64,000 bases of DNA from a virus (taxonomy: Duplodnaviria; Caudoviricetes), in IMG/VR virus record IMGVR_UViG_3300044297_000138, positions 32,001 through 96,000 of that record; one strand, 5' to 3'. Under the pieces are notes generated by a model. That model was not told where the DNA came from. It made no database searches and was given only the letters and a program-made list of their open reading frames with translations. Shown one piece after another: positions 31,907-59,422 of this stretch (position 1 is its first letter; the number at the start of each line of letters is the position of its first letter). The position numbers were made by a program, and so were the translations under genes.

Positions 31907-32452
31907 ATGGCATTCAACGTAGCAGAATTTAGAAGTCAGATGGCAGGTGACGGCGCTCGTCCTAATCTGTTCTCTGTTTCTTTGACATTCCCACAGTTTG
32001 TTACTGGTGGTGTCGATGCAAGCAGAAAAGTGACTTTCATGGCCAAAGCCGCACAATTACCAGGTTCATCAATGGGACAAGTTCCGGTCTATTACTTTGG
32101 CCGTGAAATGAAGTTTGTTGGTAACAGAAGTTTCGCTGATTGGACAATCACCATCATCAACGATGAAGATTTTACCATTCGTAACACAGTAGAAAAATGG
32201 ATGAATAGTTTGAACAGTCATGCAGGTAACGTTCGTGACCAAAATGCAAAACTACCAAGCAATTATTCCGTTGACGCTGAAGTTATTCAATACGGCAAAA
32301 CCGGTAGTGAACTAAAGAAATACAACTTTGTGGGATTGTTCCCTGTTGATTTAACACCAATCGCTCTTGATTGGGGTTCAAATGATACCATTGAAGAATT
32401 TGATGTGACATTTGCTTATCAATATTGGACAACAGCAGATACCACAAGCTGA
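31907..32452 (+). CDS. gp19: tail tube protein gp19
   Basis: GARPNLF...G.R.FADWTITIINDEDF...IEEFDVTF. Confidence 0.95.
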   Translation: MAFNVAEFRSQMAGDGARPNLFSVSLTFPQFVTGGVDASRKVTFMAKAAQLPGSSMGQVPVYYFGREMKFVGNRSFADWTITIINDEDFTIRNTVEKWMNSLNSHAGNVRDQNAKLPSNYSVDAEVIQYGKTGSELKKYNFVGLFPVDLTPIALDWGSNDTIEEFDVTFAYQYWTTADTTS

Positions 32453-54643: not shown

Positions 54644-54748
54644 ATGTTATCCATACATAGATCGACACTAAAGGCCTGTGAGTATCGCACACCATTTATT
54701 GGTAGCGATAATCAGTCATGGCTAAAGGGGTCTTGTATAGGAGCTTAA
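54644..54748 (+). CDS. putative attenuator leader peptide MLSIHRSTLKACEYRTPFIGSDNQSWLKGSCIGA
   Basis: 34-codon ORF between a promoter and a terminator; its 3' codons are complementary to the terminator 5' side; only a weak A-rich RBS. Confidence 0.6.
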   Translation: MLSIHRSTLKACEYRTPFIGSDNQSWLKGSCIGA

Positions 54749-54781
54749 TACAAAAGTAGTAAAAGAAACTTCAAACACAAG

Positions 54782-54814
54782 ACCCAGACCCTCAAAAGTC
54801 TGGGTTTTTTGTTT
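54782..54814 (+). terminator. intrinsic terminator (attenuator) before the tRNA array
   Basis: ACCCAGAC-8 nt-GTCTGGGT-TTTTTGTTT. Confidence 0.85.
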
Positions 54815-54837
54815 GGTGTGTCATAAAAACAACACCA

Positions 54838-54886
54838 TTGACAAAGCAATCTGGCTTTGTTATAATAGAAAATCGTTCTTTAAAAA
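54838..54886 (+). promoter_or_regulatory. consensus sigma70 promoter plus rrn boxA-like element
   Basis: TTGACA-17 bp-TATAAT, then CGTTCTTTAAAAA at 54874-54886. Confidence 0.75.
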
Positions 54887-54903
54887 TTTGTAGAGTCATT
54901 TGT

Positions 54904-54979
54904 ACCCTCTTAGCCAAGCTGGTAAGGCATCGGATTTTGATTCCGACATGCGGTGGTTCAAGTCCATCAGGGGGTGCCA
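54904..54979 (+). tRNA. tRNA-Gln (TTG)
   Basis: Cloverleaf, CCA. Confidence 0.9.
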
Positions 54980-55064
54980 TACAAAAACACATCAGTATCG
55001 AAAAGGTACGTGCGACTGAAAAGCCGGGGTTTGTGAGCTTGGTGTGTTTCTATATGGTTTTAAT

Positions 55065-55156
55065 GGAAGTGTGGCAGAGTCCGGTTTATTGCACCTGTCT
55101 TGAAAACAGACGATCTGTAAAAGGGTCCGTGAGTTCGAATCTCACCGCTTCCGCCA
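55065..55156 (+). tRNA. tRNA-Ser (TGA)
   Basis: Cloverleaf, long variable arm, CCA. Confidence 0.9.
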
Positions 55157-55264
55157 ATATGTTGAGCTGGGAATTTGGCCTTCGATGTATCTAATAAGAA
55201 ACTAGCAAAACTATTAGAGTTGGCATCCTTCCTTGCTAGTTAATCAGCTCAACAAAATATTTAT

Positions 55265-55354
55265 GGAGAGTGGGCAGGATGGTAATGCAGCGGATTGCTA
55301 ATCCGTAGACTTACGAAAGTAGGTCACAGGGTTCGACTCCCTGACTCTCCGCCA
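55265..55354 (+). tRNA. tRNA-Ser (GCT)
   Basis: Cloverleaf, long variable arm, CCA. Confidence 0.9.
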
Positions 55355-55422
55355 AGTTGTGTTGCAACTGATTTGAGGAACTCCCGTACACCTCAAAGAG
55401 AATGACAAAAAAACGGGGCCAT

Positions 55423-55514
55423 GCCAGCGAGACTTGGTAGTCAGAGAGGTCTTATAAGCCTTTTAGCGCCAGATTAGCGTTCTTGAGTGAGTTCGATTCT
55501 CACCGCTGGTACCA
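55423..55514 (+). tRNA. atypical tRNA with TAT anticodon (nominal Ile), long variable arm
   Basis: GCCAGCG/CGCTGGT acceptor; GAGGT-CT-TAT-AA-GCCTT; GTGAG-TTCGATT-CTCAC; CCA. Confidence 0.75.
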
Positions 55515-55519
55515 ATCAT

Positions 55520-55595
55520 GTAGGTGTGACCCGAAAGGCTAGGGAACGGATTGCAAATCCGTTTTATGCAGGTTCGATTCCTGTCACCTACTCCA
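55520..55595 (+). tRNA. tRNA-Cys (GCA)
   Basis: Cloverleaf, U73, CCA. Confidence 0.9.
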
Positions 55596-55690
55596 TAATA
55601 CTTGATTGATTTTATGGAGAACTAAAGTGTTACTTGCCAAAATTATTAATTGTGATACAATAGAGTTTCTTTCATTGAATGAGGTATCAA

Positions 55691-55912
55691 ATGATTACTG
55701 AAAAGCAAATCAAAAAATTGAAAAAATTTGGTTATAAAGTTTTTGGAGTTGTTGGTCATAAAGAAGGAACACATTGCTTTGATTATTATGGGTATGAAGT
55801 ACCTAAAATTCGGAGCATTTGTCCCGCTTATGTTGCACACAAAGGAGAAATGAAAGCGTGGGAAGCAGTTTTGAAATTTCATCAAGAAGAAGTTGAAGGT
55901 GTTTTAATTTAA
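55691..55912 (+). CDS. hypothetical protein within the tRNA array
   Basis: GAGG RBS; upstream TTGCCA...TACAAT promoter-like sequence. Confidence 0.6.
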   Translation: MITEKQIKKLKKFGYKVFGVVGHKEGTHCFDYYGYEVPKIRSICPAYVAHKGEMKAWEAVLKFHQEEVEGVLI

Positions 55913-55922
55913 AAATTTGTGT

Positions 55923-55997
55923 GCTCGGTTCGTCTATCGGTTAGGACGCTGGCCTTTCACGCCGGAAAGACGAGTTCGATTCTCGTACCGAGTACCA
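55923..55997 (+). tRNA. tRNA-Glu (TTC)
   Basis: Cloverleaf, CCA. Confidence 0.9.
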
Positions 55998-56211
55998 TAT
56001 TAAATTGCATTGGGTTACCAATTCCAATAGGTGACTGTCAGGGATAGATTCAGCAGCCGTGCTGACCTTGACACAATCACATGAAGCCTGACGATGGTGT
56101 TGGAAGTAATTGGTTCGTAATGTGGACATAACCTTATCGGCGGACGAAGCCGTGAGAAGTCTCCTGGAGTGGAGAAACGGTTGTGACACCCCAATGTAAT
56201 TTAGTATGGTA
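55993..56211 (+). ncRNA. structured RNA closed by a 22-bp stem
   Basis: 55993-56014 pairs with 56190-56211; several inner helices. Confidence 0.6.
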
Positions 56212-56337
56212 TTATTTGTTTTGCTGATGTAAGCTCAGAGGTACGATCAAACGTTATGTAACTATGTAAATAAACGGTAATTCTTGCAAGTAAGTCCGTT
56301 GAGCATAGCATATAGTGCGTCAGCAAAACAAATGGTA
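56210..56337 (+). ncRNA. structured RNA closed by a 22-bp stem
   Basis: 56210-56231 pairs with 56316-56337. Confidence 0.55.
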
Positions 56338-56341
56338 TTAT

Positions 56342-56416
56342 GCAGGTGTAACTCAGAGGCAGAGTATCTGGCTTTTAACCAGAGAGTCGAGATTTCAAAA
56401 TTCTCCACCTGTACCA
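56342..56416 (+). tRNA. tRNA-Lys (TTT)
   Basis: Cloverleaf with a slightly irregular T arm, CCA. Confidence 0.85.
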
Positions 56417-56425
56417 GTAGAATTT

Positions 56426-56510
56426 GGAGGTGCCGCCGTAATGGTATGGCAGGAGACTGTAAATCTTCCGGCTTGCGCCACAGTAGGTTCGATCCCTACC
56501 ACCTCCACCA
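56426..56510 (+). tRNA. tRNA-Tyr (GTA)
   Basis: Cloverleaf, variable arm, CCA. Confidence 0.9.
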
Positions 56511-56515
56511 AATTT

Positions 56516-56590
56516 GGTCCGTAAGTGTTCATGGACGCACGTAAGCTTGTCACGCTTAAAGAAGGGGCTCGATACCCCTACGGACCGCCA
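56516..56590 (+). tRNA. tRNA-Asp (GTC)
   Basis: Cloverleaf, CCA. Confidence 0.85.
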
Positions 56591-56603
56591 TATATAATTT
56601 TAT

Positions 56604-56678
56604 TCCCCGTTAGCTCAGCGGCAGAGCAGTTGACTGTTAATCAATTGGTCCCTGGTTCGATCCCAGGATGGGGAGCCA
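56604..56678 (+). tRNA. tRNA-Asn (GTT)
   Basis: Cloverleaf, CCA. Confidence 0.92.
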
Positions 56679-56684
56679 AATATT

Positions 56685-56761
56685 CGGAGTGTAGCACAGC
56701 CTGGTAGTGCGCTTGCTTTGGGAGCAAGAGGTCCAAGGTTCGAATCCTTGTACTCCGACCA
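56685..56761 (+). tRNA. tRNA-Pro (TGG)
   Basis: Cloverleaf, CCA. Confidence 0.92.
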
Positions 56762-56766
56762 TCTTT

Positions 56767-56842
56767 GGGCCAGTAGCTCATCTGGGAGAGCATCTGCTTT
56801 GCAAGCAGAGGGTAGCGGGTTCAAGTCCTGTCTGGTCCACCA
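56767..56842 (+). tRNA. tRNA-Ala (TGC)
   Basis: Cloverleaf, G3:U70, CCA. Confidence 0.92.
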
Positions 56843-56845
56843 AAA

Positions 56846-57110
56846 CGTGCCGTCTAGTCAACGGCTACTCCGACCCGGAGGACGAGAAGTGGTGTGATGG
56901 CCACGGGTGGTTCTGAGATTTGGAATATAAGTCTCACAGTAGAAATACTGCGGTCTAACCAAACCGGCGCTGGCAATGCGATAACGGCCCCTGTCGGGGA
57001 GCGGGTGGAAGGTGCGTGTGATGGTGGTGTGGTATGAGTGCCTAAAAGGCGTCCTCAGAGTCCATTAACTGCTTGATGCGCTATAATTACCGCCGAGGGG
57101 TGCCAGAGCA
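56846..57110 (+). ncRNA. GC-rich multi-helix ncRNA (about 265 nt)
   Basis: Hairpins GCCGT/ACGGC, CTCCG/CGGAG, TGAGATTT/AAGTCTCA, CAGTA-GAAA-TACTG; nested CTGGCA/TGCCAG, CCCCT/AGGGG, GTGCGT/ATGCGC. Confidence 0.65.
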
Positions 57111-57113
57111 TTT

Positions 57114-57188
57114 GGTGATATAGCATAGAAGGATATGCACGGGTTTCATACGCCTGCAAGGTTGGATCGTTACCAACTATCACCACCA
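57114..57188 (+). tRNA. tRNA-Met (CAT, probably elongator)
   Basis: Cloverleaf, atypical T-loop ATCGTTA, CCA. Confidence 0.8.
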
Positions 57189-57194
57189 AATTTT

Positions 57195-57270
57195 CGGTCC
57201 TTGGTGAAACTGGAGATCATCTGAGTCTACGAAATTCAAGTTGGGGGCTCGAATCCCTCAGGACCGGCCA
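57195..57270 (+). tRNA. tRNA-Arg (ACG)
   Basis: Cloverleaf, CCA. Confidence 0.85.
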
Positions 57271-57275
57271 AATTT

Positions 57276-57350
57276 ACCGAGTTAGCTCAGCGGTAGAGCA
57301 GCGTCTTGATAAGGCGTTGGCCAGTGGTTCAATCCCACTACTCGGTACCA
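57276..57350 (+). tRNA. tRNA-Ile (GAT)
   Basis: Cloverleaf, CCA. Confidence 0.9.
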
Positions 57351-57352
57351 TT

Positions 57353-57427
57353 ATCTCGCTGGTGTCAACGGCAGCATGACGGTCTCCAAAACCGTGGGAC
57401 GGGGTTCGAATCCCTGGCGGGATGCCA
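57353..57427 (+). tRNA. tRNA-Trp (CCA)
   Basis: Cloverleaf, CCA. Confidence 0.9.
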
Positions 57428-57448
57428 TTTTTTATAAAGGTGATTGAT

Positions 57449-57925
57449 ATGAAAAAATTCAATGTAGAAGAAGTCAAAACATTCCTTGCAACACAAGGAC
57501 CTGATACCCGTGTATACTTGGGTGCCGACTCCGAAAGAATTAGAGTTAACGGCGTATGGTATGCTGACTATGCATTGGCTGTTGTTGTTCATATTGATGG
57601 CCGCCACGGTTGTAAAATTTTCGGTTATGTTGACCGTGAATTGGATTACGACCATAAGAAAAGTAAACCTGCTATGCGTCTGATGACAGAAGTATATAAG
57701 GTTTCAGAATTGTTTCAAGAATTGCAACATTCACTAGAAGATTTCCATGTTGAAGTTCACTTGGACTTAAATAAGGATGAAGAATTCGGTTCTTCTTGTG
57801 TTGTGCAACAAGCGATTGGTTACATCAAAGGTACATGTAACATGACACCTATGGTTAAACCAGACGCACCTGCCGCTTCTTTCTGTGCAGACCGACTGAA
57901 ACGGATTTTAGCGGAACAAGAATGA
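57449..57925 (+). CDS. RNase H-like YkuK/DUF458 family protein
   Basis: YLGADS...AVVVH...G..IF...L.TEV...EVHLD...KP.A.AAS..ADR. Confidence 0.75.
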   Translation: MKKFNVEEVKTFLATQGPDTRVYLGADSERIRVNGVWYADYALAVVVHIDGRHGCKIFGYVDRELDYDHKKSKPAMRLMTEVYKVSELFQELQHSLEDFHVEVHLDLNKDEEFGSSCVVQQAIGYIKGTCNMTPMVKPDAPAASFCADRLKRILAEQE

Positions 57926-57926
57926 T

Positions 57927-58001
57927 GCAGGAATTAGTTTAGTGGCAAAACCACGGGTTGTGATTCCGTTATCAAGAGTTCGATTCTCTTATTCCTGCCC
58001 A
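57927..58001 (+). tRNA. tRNA-His (GTG)
   Basis: 8-bp acceptor with G-1:C73, CCA. Confidence 0.9.
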
Positions 58002-58003
58002 AT

Positions 58004-58079
58004 GCTTCGTTAACTCAGTTGGTAGAGTGCCTCCCTTACAAGGAGGATGTCGGCAGTTCGAACCTGTCACGAAGCACCA
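58004..58079 (+). tRNA. tRNA-Val (TAC)
   Basis: Cloverleaf, CCA. Confidence 0.92.
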
Positions 58080-58084
58080 ATATT

Positions 58085-58160
58085 GCAGCTCTAGCTGATG
58101 TGGTCATAGCGGCGGTCTGAAGAACCGTTGAACCAGGTTCGATTCCTGGGGGTTGCACCA
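58085..58160 (+). tRNA. tRNA-Phe (GAA)
   Basis: Cloverleaf, CCA. Confidence 0.9.
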
Positions 58161-58161
58161 A

Positions 58162-58235
58162 GCTCTCATAGTATAATGGTATTACACACCCTTGGTAAGG
58201 GTGAAACACAAGTTCAATTCTTGTTGAGAGCACCA
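58162..58235 (+). tRNA. tRNA-Thr (GGT)
   Basis: Cloverleaf, CCA. Confidence 0.9.
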
Positions 58236-58423
58236 GATTGTTTTAATCTAGTCATTTTCTTTTTAATGTAAGCTGTTCTGGCAACATCATGTTCACATAT
58301 TTCAGCCAACAAAGCAATAATATAACCTAAATCATAGGCTAGTTTTTGTCCAGAAGTTTTGTGCTGGTTGCCAGAATTCTGGAGTTGTTCTATAATATAG
58401 TCTGTAAGTTGTTTTTTATTCAT
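58214..58423 (-). CDS. hypothetical protein antisense within the tRNA array
   Basis: 69-aa ORF filling the spacer; ATAAATA late-promoter-like motif just upstream on the minus strand. Confidence 0.55.
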   Translation of the reverse strand: MNKKQLTDYIIEQLQNSGNQHKTSGQKLAYDLGYIIALLAEICEHDVARTAYIKKKMTRLKQSGALNKN

Positions 58424-58437
58424 AGAAATATTTATTT

Positions 58438-58514
58438 GCCCCGGTGACGGAATTGGTATACGTGTTGGTCTTAGAAGCCAAATTTTGAGAGTTCGAGTCT
58501 CTCCTGGGGCACCA
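58438..58514 (+). tRNA. tRNA-Leu (TAG), short variable loop
   Basis: Cloverleaf, CCA. Confidence 0.88.
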
Positions 58515-58519
58515 AATTA

Positions 58520-58594
58520 CTGGCCATAGTATAATGGATAATACAGCTGCCTTCTAAGCAGTCAATCGGGGTTCGATTCCCTGTGGCCGGACCA
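58520..58594 (+). tRNA. tRNA-Arg (TCT)
   Basis: Cloverleaf, CCA. Confidence 0.9.
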
Positions 58595-58597
58595 AAT

Positions 58598-58682
58598 GCG
58601 ACTATGGTGAAATAGGTAGACACAGGAGACTTAAAATCTCCCGACTTCGGTCGTGCTGGTTCGATTCCGGCTAGTCGCACCA
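58598..58682 (+). tRNA. tRNA-Leu (TAA)
   Basis: Cloverleaf, variable arm, CCA. Confidence 0.92.
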
Positions 58683-58690
58683 AAAAGTTA

Positions 58691-58719
58691 TTGACATTGA
58701 TAGAAAGATCATATATAAT
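58691..58719 (+). promoter_or_regulatory. consensus sigma70 promoter inside the array
   Basis: TTGACA-17 bp-TATAAT. Confidence 0.85.
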
Positions 58720-58729
58720 ATAAATGTAA

Positions 58730-58804
58730 GCGGGATTGGTGCTAGTGGTAACACGGGACCTTGCCAAGGTTCAGTTGCGAGTTCGATCCTCGCATCCCGC
58801 TCCA
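58730..58804 (+). tRNA. tRNA-Gly (GCC)
   Basis: Cloverleaf, CCA. Confidence 0.9.
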
Positions 58805-58809
58805 AATGA

Positions 58810-58884
58810 GCTCCGTTAGTTCTAGTGGTAAAACATCGGTTTTGTAATCCGAGGTCGGGTGTTCGATTCACCCCCGGAGCACCA
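58810..58884 (+). tRNA. tRNA-Thr (TGT)
   Basis: Cloverleaf, CCA. Confidence 0.88.
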
Positions 58885-58892
58885 GATAATGC

Positions 58893-58921
58893 TTGACTCT
58901 ACAATTTTTTTGTGATATAAT
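58893..58921 (+). promoter_or_regulatory. sigma70 promoter inside the array
   Basis: TTGACT-17 bp-TATAAT with TGTGA extension. Confidence 0.8.
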
Positions 58922-58941
58922 TTGTTTTATTAAATATTAAT

Positions 58942-59014
58942 GCGGGTATTCTCCTGGGAGAGAATTTAGCCTTCCAAGCTAACAGAATCGGTTCGAATCC
59001 GGTTACCCGCTCCA
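58942..59014 (+). tRNA. tRNA-Gly (TCC)
   Basis: Cloverleaf with a compact D arm, CCA. Confidence 0.85.
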
Positions 59015-59021
59015 GTTTTAT

Positions 59022-59088
59022 GCGGTATGGTATTAACTGTCTGAGGGTCCACCTTAGAAGTGTTGTGAGAATCAATAATACCGCTCCA
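59022..59088 (+). ncRNA. tRNA-like RNA / pseudo-tRNA
   Basis: GCGGTAT/ATACCGC acceptor plus T-CCA; central TCTGAGG/CCTTAGA stem; no canonical D or T arms. Confidence 0.6.
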
Positions 59089-59094
59089 TTCAAT

Positions 59095-59169
59095 CGCAGG
59101 GTGGAGAAGTAGTAACTCATCAGGCTCATACCCTGAAGATCGGCGGTGCGAATCCGTCCCCTGCAACCA
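59095..59169 (+). tRNA. initiator tRNA-fMet (CAT)
   Basis: C1:A72 mismatch, CAT anticodon, CCA. Confidence 0.85.
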
Positions 59170-59182
59170 ATTTGAGGTAATT

Positions 59183-59422
59183 ATGAGACCATTGCATAAT
59201 AAAGTTATTGTTGAAAGAATTCCTGGTGAAACTACCACATCATCAGGAATTGTCTTACAAAGATCCGATGAGGTAGACAAAGCAAAAGTTATTGCGATTG
59301 GTCCAGATGTTGAAGAGGTTTCTGTCGGTGATACTGTCCTATTAGATTGGAACAGAGCAGTCAAGGCAGGAGACAATTTTGTTATTACAGTAGACAATAT
59401 CGTTTTAATTTACGGAGAGTAA
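59183..59422 (+). CDS. groES: GroES-like co-chaperonin
   Basis: MRPLHNKVIVER...TTSSGIVL...VIAIGP...VGDTVL. Confidence 0.88.
   Translation: MRPLHNKVIVERIPGETTTSSGIVLQRSDEVDKAKVIAIGPDVEEVSVGDTVLLDWNRAVKAGDNFVITVDNIVLIYGE

Follow-up and report, generated by a model that had tools for sequence, protein, structure and literature searches.

What occupies the 271 nucleotides (nt) that separate two transfer RNA (tRNA) genes of an uncultured phage, in a gap that is far too rich in GC to look like the surrounding coding DNA? The window analyzed here is a stretch of 64,000 nt, positions 32,001 to 96,000 of the IMG/VR virus record IMGVR_UViG_3300044297_000138, which is 174.5 kb long, rated complete, and T4-like by its genes for a clamp loader, a gp31-type co-chaperonin, and dCMP deaminase. 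An array of 27 co-oriented tRNA genes (54904-59169; called by ARAGORN and Rfam) runs through this window, and its spacer at 56843-57113 (+) lies between tRNA-Ala(UGC) and tRNA-Met(CAU). A preliminary description, made from the sequence alone, had placed a large and ornate noncoding RNA (ncRNA) here, GC-rich and devoid of a credible open reading frame (ORF). Both of these latter properties are readily confirmed: the GC content of the spacer is 0.54 to 0.56, compared to 0.32 to 0.40 for flanking coding DNA (the tRNA array as a whole is GC-enriched), and no ORF of at least 50 amino acids lies inside it, the sole overlapping ORF (56707-56916) entering from the tRNAs. Judged from the comparative analysis described below, 56843-57113 (+) is an intact gene of a real structured RNA, present in one copy in the 174.5-kb genome, that belongs to a family so far found only in phages.

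The fold predicted for the lone sequence is no better than chance, with a z score of −0.91 on the + strand (40 of 200 shuffled sequences fold as well) and a − strand that likewise stays within one standard deviation of its shuffles (z −1.0). Folding of a single copy is thus uninformative, and any proof of structure has to be comparative. Using the neighbouring gene for an RNase H-like protein, we fetched 80 related loci and detected the spacer by blastn in about 40 of them, where it appears as three conserved blocks split by variable parts and fills inter-tRNA gaps of 193 to 270 nt between differing pairs of tRNAs. An unfitted MAFFT alignment of 24 distinct copies analyzed with RNAalifold already gave 43 base pairs, and 25 of these show compensatory changes on both sides. 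A 17-nt core pattern then served to fetch 119 loci from IMG/VR, where at least 119 contigs match it (including contigs of 212 to 524 kb); the invariance of the core motif among loci obtained in this way is partly circular. The core strand GUCGGGGAGCGGGUGGAA is, however, also invariant in the protein-fetched loci, which were not chosen by motif.

A covariance model of the family (model R1, 206 positions) finds one full-length copy in nearly every fetched locus. Its only match in the window is 56843-57113, with 181 bits, an E value of 4e-55, and coverage of all positions from 1 to 206. Across 100 distinct sequences of 176 to 283 nt that share 51% to 99% pairwise identity (median 74%), a structure of 55 pairs is paired in 97% of cells, and 40 of these 55 pairs show compensatory changes. 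The corresponding covariation score of 0.464 compares to 0.163 ± 0.004 for shuffled alignments, none of which reaches it in 500 attempts, and to 0.04 to 0.10 when the partners are slid by 1 to 3 columns. Of the columns with at least 97% conservation, all 71 are retained in the window copy, which also forms every tertiary pair. The strand is equally clear: the tRNAs run in the same direction as the RNA in all 127 full-length copies, and the conserved G-U pairs G131-U174 (100% of sequences) and U5-G199 (89%) would be mismatches if read on the opposite strand.

The family core measures about 205 nt and is constant except at two peripheral sites, both of which carry lineage-specific insertions in the window copy and bring it to 271 nt. 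At the first site, where the window copy holds two hairpins, a few relatives have different inserts; the second is the tip of P8, which varies from 0 to about 90 nt, is enlarged in the window copy, and frequently ends in a GNRA loop in relatives. Several long-range contacts outside the alignment model emerged from a mutual-information scan, namely, a loop-loop kiss between P1 and P3, pairing of the P2 loop with the GGGU of J3/4, U97-A104, and G106-C195. The 3 to 4 pairs of the P1-P3 kiss covary (GC 60, AU 25, GU 10; UA 80, CG 12; CG 61, UG 21, GC 10, UA 5), and the alignment cannot have been fitted to them since they are absent from its model. Likewise, both P2-loop/GGGU pairs are compensatory (CG 97, UA 3 and CG 96, AU 4), and U97 in the P5 loop pairs with A104 (UA 92, CG 8). 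The GGU that follows in J3/4 is complementary to the ACC of the P4 loop, but these bases are 98% to 99% invariant and therefore beyond the reach of covariation. Taken together, a single seven-base strand appears to bridge two ACC hairpin loops. P6, P6b, P7, and P8 make up the nested 3' domain, in which the bulges are invariant and one internal loop measures 6 by 7, and P8 contains a k-turn-like element (UGU-GA at 57017-57021 opposite GA at 57075-57076) with tandem G-A/A-G in about 70% of sequences. The coordinates of all features are collected in the table below.

These results largely bear out the architecture suggested by the preliminary description. A large ncRNA does lie between tRNA-Ala and tRNA-Met, and the predicted five or more hairpins correspond to P1, P2, P3, two insert hairpins (including the one with a GAAA loop at about 56937-56950), P4, and P5. 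The nested 3' domain also exists, with P6 to P8 supported by covariation, although only two of the four helices proposed for it stand: CCCCT/AGGGG (P6) and GTGCG/TGCGC (P8) covary. CTGGCA/TGCCAG is peculiar to the window copy, and the family instead forms the P5 hairpin CGC-UGGCAAU-GCG plus G106-C195, whereas GGTGG/TTACC is out of register with GCGG/CCGC (P7), which is fixed by covariation at C122-G184 (CG 92, UA 8).

Is this RNA a member of any known class? The interval 54700-59400 was scanned against Rfam 15, and neither 56843-57113 nor three other family members gave a match at the gathering score or at E values up to 10. This negative covers GOLLD, ROOL, RNase P, transfer-messenger RNA (tmRNA), T-box, group I introns, and Y RNA. 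The idea of a GOLLD-like domain, possibly with further parts among the upstream spacers, is thus not sustained: the RNA is self-contained at 176 to 283 nt, and the long upstream spacer holds two separate conserved RNAs. Together with the structure supported across relatives, the absence of Rfam matches instead supports the other option raised at the outset, a new class.

Features of the RNA gene and its surroundings (window positions unless a locus number is given; pair counts from the 100-sequence alignment)
Feature	Position	Strand	Evidence or remark
Whole RNA gene	56843..57113	+	model R1 match, 71/71 invariant columns
P0 5' strand GU	56847..56848	+	pairs with GC 57108-57109, joins RNA ends; U5-G199: UG 89, CG 7, GC 4; G4-C200: GC 87
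P1 hairpin GCCGU/ACGGC, loop CUAGUCA	56849..56865	+	5/5 pairs compensatory
P1-loop GUCA	56857..56860	+	kisses P3-loop UGAU 56895-56898; forms in window copy
P2 hairpin CUCCG-ACC-CGGAG, ACC triloop 56873-56875	56868..56880	+	3/5 pairs compensatory, 99.8% of cells pair
J2/3 GACGAGAAG	56881..56889	+	family consensus GAUGAGAAG; AGAAG nearly invariant
P3 hairpin	56890..56903	+	5/5 pairs compensatory
J3/4 strand GGGUGGU	56905..56911	+	GGGU pairs with P2 loop ACC(C); GGU with P4-loop ACC 56958-56960
Two-hairpin insertion, 38 nt (~56914-56936; ~56937-56950, GAAA loop)	56912..56949	+	most relatives lack it; single-sequence fold
P4 hairpin, loop CUAACCAA	56950..56967	+	4/5 pairs compensatory
P5 hairpin CGC-UGGCAAU-GCG, T-loop-like 7-nt loop	56968..56980	+	C90-G98: CG 76, UA 24; U91 and A95 invariant
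P6 5' strand GGCCCCU	56986..56992	+	pairs with 57096-57104; 7/7 compensatory, 99.9% of cells pair
Core strand GUCGGGGAGCGGGUGGAA (P6b CG 56995-56996, P7 GCGG 57001-57004, bulges)	56993..57010	+	near-invariant in 100 sequences
P8 GGUGCG/UGCGCU	57011..57082	+	5/6 pairs compensatory
3' strands: J8/7 AUAAUUA, P7 CCGC, P6b CG, P6 AGGGGUGCC	57083..57104	+	100-sequence alignment
3' tail AGAGCAUUU (holds P0 3' strand GC)	57105..57113	+	GCAGAGCA conserved, then U-rich tail
Candidate RNA ends			5' GAACGU, 3' GCAGAGCAUUU; predicted from sequence
tRNA-Ala(UGC)	56767..56842	+	CCA end directly precedes model-match base 56843; first conserved base C 56846 lies 3 nt on
tRNA-Met(CAU)	57114..57188	+	ARAGORN, Rfam; RNase P cut at its 5' end would define the 3' end of the RNA
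Sigma-70-like promoter of tRNA array (TTGACA-17-TATAAT)	54838..54866	+	12/12 match; consensus match only
Terminator-like unit end (T-run after tRNA-Trp, at 57428)	57410..57436	+	consensus match only
Two clamp-stem cassettes	55995-56211; 56212-56339		near-perfect stems of 20 and 22 bp enclosing structured inserts
Permuted tmRNA genes (relatives)	L176:6082-6501; L147:8268-8646; L092:2867-3397; L116:3106-3624		104-123 bits

The contexts in which the RNA is found are informative about how it may work. Most copies (89 of the 127 full-length ones) begin no more than 5 nt after a tRNA 3' end, with flanking tRNAs in 33 combinations, but in five loci without any tRNA in the fetched stretch the RNA fits closely between a stop codon and the gene that follows. 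The distance to tRNAs can be large: about 14 kb separate the RNA from the tRNA cluster of a complete 171.7-kb genome, and about 94 kb from 33 tRNAs on a 225-kb contig, and a 212-kb fragment carries the RNA and no tRNA anywhere. Since the RNA sits between so many different tRNA pairs or between protein genes, it must be independent of the window's upstream spacers, and its occurrence far from any tRNA in some phages indicates that it probably acts in trans instead of serving the array in cis. The carriers comprise T4-like phages and jumbo-phage contigs of 212 to 524 kb, i.e., large freshwater phages. BLAST searches of 50,697 cultured-phage records with the window copy, a typical copy, and a 74-nt core returned only one chance match of 23 nt, so that no cultured phage is known to carry the RNA, although records nearly identical to a query may lie outside the scope of this search. 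The 17-mer pattern has at least 120 matches among 185,579 prokaryote genomes, and those listed are all due to chance, with no cellular homologue among them: they are confined to the 17-mer, reach nhmmer E values of no better than 0.002 over about 25 nt, and mostly fall into high-GC genomes.

How would such an RNA be made? A perfect sigma-70-like promoter sequence and a terminator-like hairpin just upstream of it (54779-54808) precede the first tRNA of the array, and a T-run follows tRNA-Trp. In a consensus scan, the RNA gene itself lacks a terminator-like site, and the best promoter-like site nearby (10/12) lies inside tRNA-Asp. This arrangement suggests that the RNA gene is part of a polycistronic tRNA unit. 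Two metatranscriptome studies of aquatic and riverine samples contributed contigs that span the RNA or near relatives of it. Some of these contigs bridge into tRNA-Met and some carry the insert-free form typical of the family, which is a weak hint that the RNA is transcribed; stretches uncovered by such contigs were not counted as evidence.

We therefore favor, with a probability of roughly 0.6, the interpretation that 56843-57113 is an intact gene for a stable, compact ncRNA of an uncatalogued phage family that is released from the tRNA precursor and acts in trans. The RNA would be co-transcribed with the tRNAs and excised from their precursor by host tRNA-processing nucleases: RNase P cleavage at tRNA-Met would yield the 3' terminus of the RNA, and the 5' terminus would result from 3' maturation of tRNA-Ala. 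It would then fold into a globular particle and work in trans instead of acting as a signal within the array. As to its target, our best guess, which we offer tentatively, is that the RNA may bind a host or phage component of the tRNA and translation apparatus as a cofactor or decoy, given the company that it keeps (near-complete tRNA sets and tmRNA) and motifs that resemble those used in tRNA recognition. It is rather doubtful that the family might represent a new functional class with an activity of its own, either a ribozyme or a tRNA-gripping RNA whose GGGUGGU strand would exchange its two internal ACC loops for tRNA CCA ends, in a portable translation toolkit of large phages; if so, this activity would be carried alongside near-complete tRNA sets and tmRNA.

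Several observations weigh against the favored interpretation. The proposal of a binding partner in translation draws solely on the genes that surround the RNA and on likeness of motifs. None of the protein genes nearby accompanies the RNA consistently, and the commonest neighbours, a metallophosphoesterase (37 of 92 loci) and the RNase H-like PF04308 protein (34 of 92), come from fetch-biased counts; D-Ala-D-Ala carboxypeptidase, dCMP deaminase, and HNH genes recur as well. In tRNA-free contexts, tRNA-processing enzymes cannot set the ends, so that another maturation route (or none) must apply there. Finally, the RNA-library contigs possibly derive from contaminating DNA and show neither ends nor strand.

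Among the alternatives, the one that fares best is nonetheless unlikely and would make the RNA a caliper for tRNAs, with a two-point grip like that of RNase P RNA and T-box leaders. A T-loop module (the P5 loop UGGCA, perhaps together with UGAGA in J2/3) would stack on the tRNA elbow, UGGU would pair with ACCA-3', and the internal ACC loops would act as built-in competitors. The RNA does live among tRNAs, the seven bases of its P5 loop read U-G/A-G-C-A-A-U (U1 and A5 being invariant), and J3/4 has the same GGGUGGU string as what we take to be the T-box sequence core. Published tRNA-elbow docking modules carry a highly invariant AGNNA...UGNNA pair of T-loops (PMC3664808), but this signature is only half present in our family and not invariant. 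The P5 loop reads UGGCA in 60% of sequences and UAGCA in 39%, so that its second base is often A, and no conserved AGNNA was found; the candidate J2/3 varies (UGAGA, U-AGA, UAAGA, AGUGA, CGAGA). Moreover, GGGUGGU is wholly taken up by intramolecular pairs with the ACC loops, two of them covarying, and the Rfam models for T-box and RNase P give no match.

A ribozyme appears somewhat less probable again. Judged by sequence features, the RNA might cleave itself at its own 5' edge and thereby free the preceding CCA end, and it could set its own ends where no tRNA is present. This would fit the ornate, pseudoknotted core with about 70 invariant positions that is typical of catalytic RNAs, the abutment of the 5' end to a tRNA CCA in 89 of 127 copies, and the same sharp sequence boundaries between ORFs in tRNA-free contexts. 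However, the RNA has no similarity to any ribozyme family known to Rfam, its first 3 nt are variable, and tight packing is common to all genes in these arrays.

By analogy to ROOL and GOLLD, which lie close to tRNA islands of phages and form cages (PMC12286853), the RNA could also be the subunit of an RNA-only homo-oligomer, i.e., a small nanocage analogue in which the P1-P3 pairs would be intermolecular. Covariation is blind to the difference between intra- and intermolecular kissing, and we found no protein partner among the neighbours. Yet P1 and P3 are only one hairpin apart, which makes an intramolecular contact the simplest reading, and the RNA is 3 to 4 times smaller than ROOL and GOLLD and not homologous to them, so that we regard this scenario as improbable.

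A role in cis, as a processing site or spacer within the tRNA precursor (for nuclease entry or as a folding insulator, functionless once excised), is very improbable, even though the RNA is embedded in arrays where it abuts tRNAs and adjacent spacers of the window form long perfect stems of the kind cut by RNase III. The RNA is found 14 to 94 kb away from tRNAs and in the tRNA-free 212-kb fragment, a single copy serves at least 27 tRNAs, and about 70 invariant positions, mostly unpaired or in tertiary contacts, far exceed the needs of a spacer. Just as improbable is a very divergent version of a known cellular RNA (RNase P RNA, tmRNA, signal recognition particle RNA, 6S RNA, or Y RNA) or a mimic of part of an rRNA, for instance of the L1 stalk, for which one could cite loose likenesses of GAUGAGAAGU to GAGGAAAGU, presumably a string of RNase P RNA, and of GGUGG...UUACCGCC to what we take to be the L1 stalk, but four family members lack Rfam matches at E values up to 10, a long-range P4-type helix, which in RNase P RNA joins the conserved regions CR-I and CR-V, is absent (the strand after J2/3 is the local covarying hairpin P3), ARAGORN calls no tmRNA in the window while true permuted tmRNAs co-occur in relatives, genes for Ro60 or L7Ae were not found in the phage, the family model has no match in the E. 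coli rrn operon (16S, 23S, and 5S, including the L1 stalk), and the listed matches in prokaryote genomes are all due to chance.

A few related candidates were rejected on similar grounds. ARAGORN and the Rfam tRNA model call no tRNA or tRNA-like structure in 56843-57113. A YrlA-type bacterial Y RNA gives no match, and the 174.5-kb genome has no gene for a Ro60 (TROVE) protein; genes for a CCA-adding enzyme and psbA were not found in this phage either. A complementarity of GCUGGCA and UUACCGC to the 530 loop of 16S rRNA, noticed by eye, has the wrong order, and both segments are structurally engaged.

Within the arrays, the RNA is not the only conserved element besides tRNAs. Permuted (two-piece type) tmRNA genes occur in the same arrays of jumbo-phage relatives, separately from our RNA, which excludes a tmRNA identity for the latter and indicates that these phages collect translation RNAs; tmRNA of the permuted kind would be in keeping with hosts among the alpha- or betaproteobacteria (or cyanobacteria). 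Another conserved non-tRNA element of about 120 to 240 nt lies directly 3' of the RNA in 11 jumbo-phage loci (L084, L086, L088, L092, L116, L126, L141, L147, L148, L162, and L176). In the window, the 344-nt spacer between tRNA-Glu and tRNA-Lys (55995-56341) is conserved in 56 fetched loci and holds two clamp-stem cassettes, the first of which starts on the CCA end of tRNA-Glu. Their comparative analysis (28 of 108 pairs compensatory, in five sequences only) indicates that they are RNAs separate from the one at 56843-57113, and their long clamp stems look like RNase III substrates. In the short spacers 54977-55064, 55153-55264, and 55351-55422, for which blastn found 1 to 3 relatives, the strand on the preceding CCA end can by eye pair with the 3' end of the spacer (e.g., CCAUACAAAAACACA with UGUGUUUCUAUAUGG). 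ARAGORN calls a 92-nt "tRNA-Ile(UAU)" at 55423-55514 with its anticodon at position 31; at 34.8 bits it stays below the threshold of the tRNA-Sec model, and it is an atypical long-arm tRNA.

The 167-amino acid RNase H-like protein (PF04308, phrog_11311; 57422-57925, +) is encoded inside the tRNA array, directly after tRNA-Trp, and relatives of it are encoded on 331 IMG/VR stretches; with its nuclease fold and its place in a tRNA array, this protein may act on the RNAs of this array. An ORF of 77 amino acids (55679-55912, +), also inside the array, has its own promoter-like site at 55634-55661 and no Pfam or PHROG match. Among relatives, the ORF of an HNH endonuclease (phrog_1314, E value 2e-60; L094:3-713, +) ends 16 nt before the RNA gene at 729-933, and another HNH family is found in 11 loci. 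Homing endonucleases seem to target the conserved RNA gene or its surroundings.

To our knowledge, few large and intricately folded RNA classes of bacteria and phages still lack a function, and each one that was solved gave new biology. Ribozymes, riboswitches, the guide RNAs of IscB and TnpB, and the ROOL and GOLLD cages are examples. For the family described here, about 70 invariant positions, three tertiary contacts backed by covariation, one copy per genome, and a wide span of phages together point to a specific, selected activity, and its genomic neighbors, near-complete tRNA sets and tmRNA, suggest that large phages use it when they take over or insulate translation. With a core of about 205 nt and two sites that tolerate insertions, the RNA is tractable for cryo-electron microscopy, crystallography, and biochemistry.

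How does this RNA compare to known systems? RNase P RNA and T-box leaders share with it a T-loop-type hairpin loop, a GGU/UGGU string, a k-turn-like motif, pseudoknots, and an association with tRNA, but our RNA has no specifier loop, antiterminator, or P4 helix, and its UGGU element is internally paired. The stable RNAs rnaC (species 1) and rnaD (species 2) of phage T4 are similar in placement only, as non-tRNA species encoded within a T4-type tRNA cluster, on the strand of the tRNAs and immediately behind one of them (1 nt after tRNA-Arg in the case of rnaD). They are shorter (139 and 119 nt), rnaC ends in a tRNA-like T arm, and neither has any of the family's motifs; a search of T4 positions 69000-74000 with our model and all filters off gave a best score of 3.6 bits, elsewhere than rnaC or rnaD. 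The clamp-stem RNAs of the window are likewise conserved and structured and fill inter-tRNA spacers in the same phage lineages, yet they are built from perfect stems of 20 to 22 bp that start at a tRNA CCA and enclose variable inserts, whereas the RNA at 56843-57113 lacks a stem of this kind and its globular core is constant. Similar in habit are GOLLD and ROOL, which are also phage-borne, often lie beside tRNAs, adopt pseudoknotted folds backed by covariation, and have no known protein partner (PMC12286853). They are not homologous to our family, which matches neither model (including the conserved 3' half of GOLLD), and at about 800 nt for GOLLD and about 580 nt for ROOL they are much larger than its core. 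The IMG/VR structured-RNA catalogue of Fremin et al. (2023) gives motifs of 29 to 151 nt (PMC10690425). Set against Rfam 15, and against the Fremin catalogue by motif length only, the family is thus uncatalogued and its fold novel, while its genomic habit resembles that of other RNAs from phage tRNA islands.

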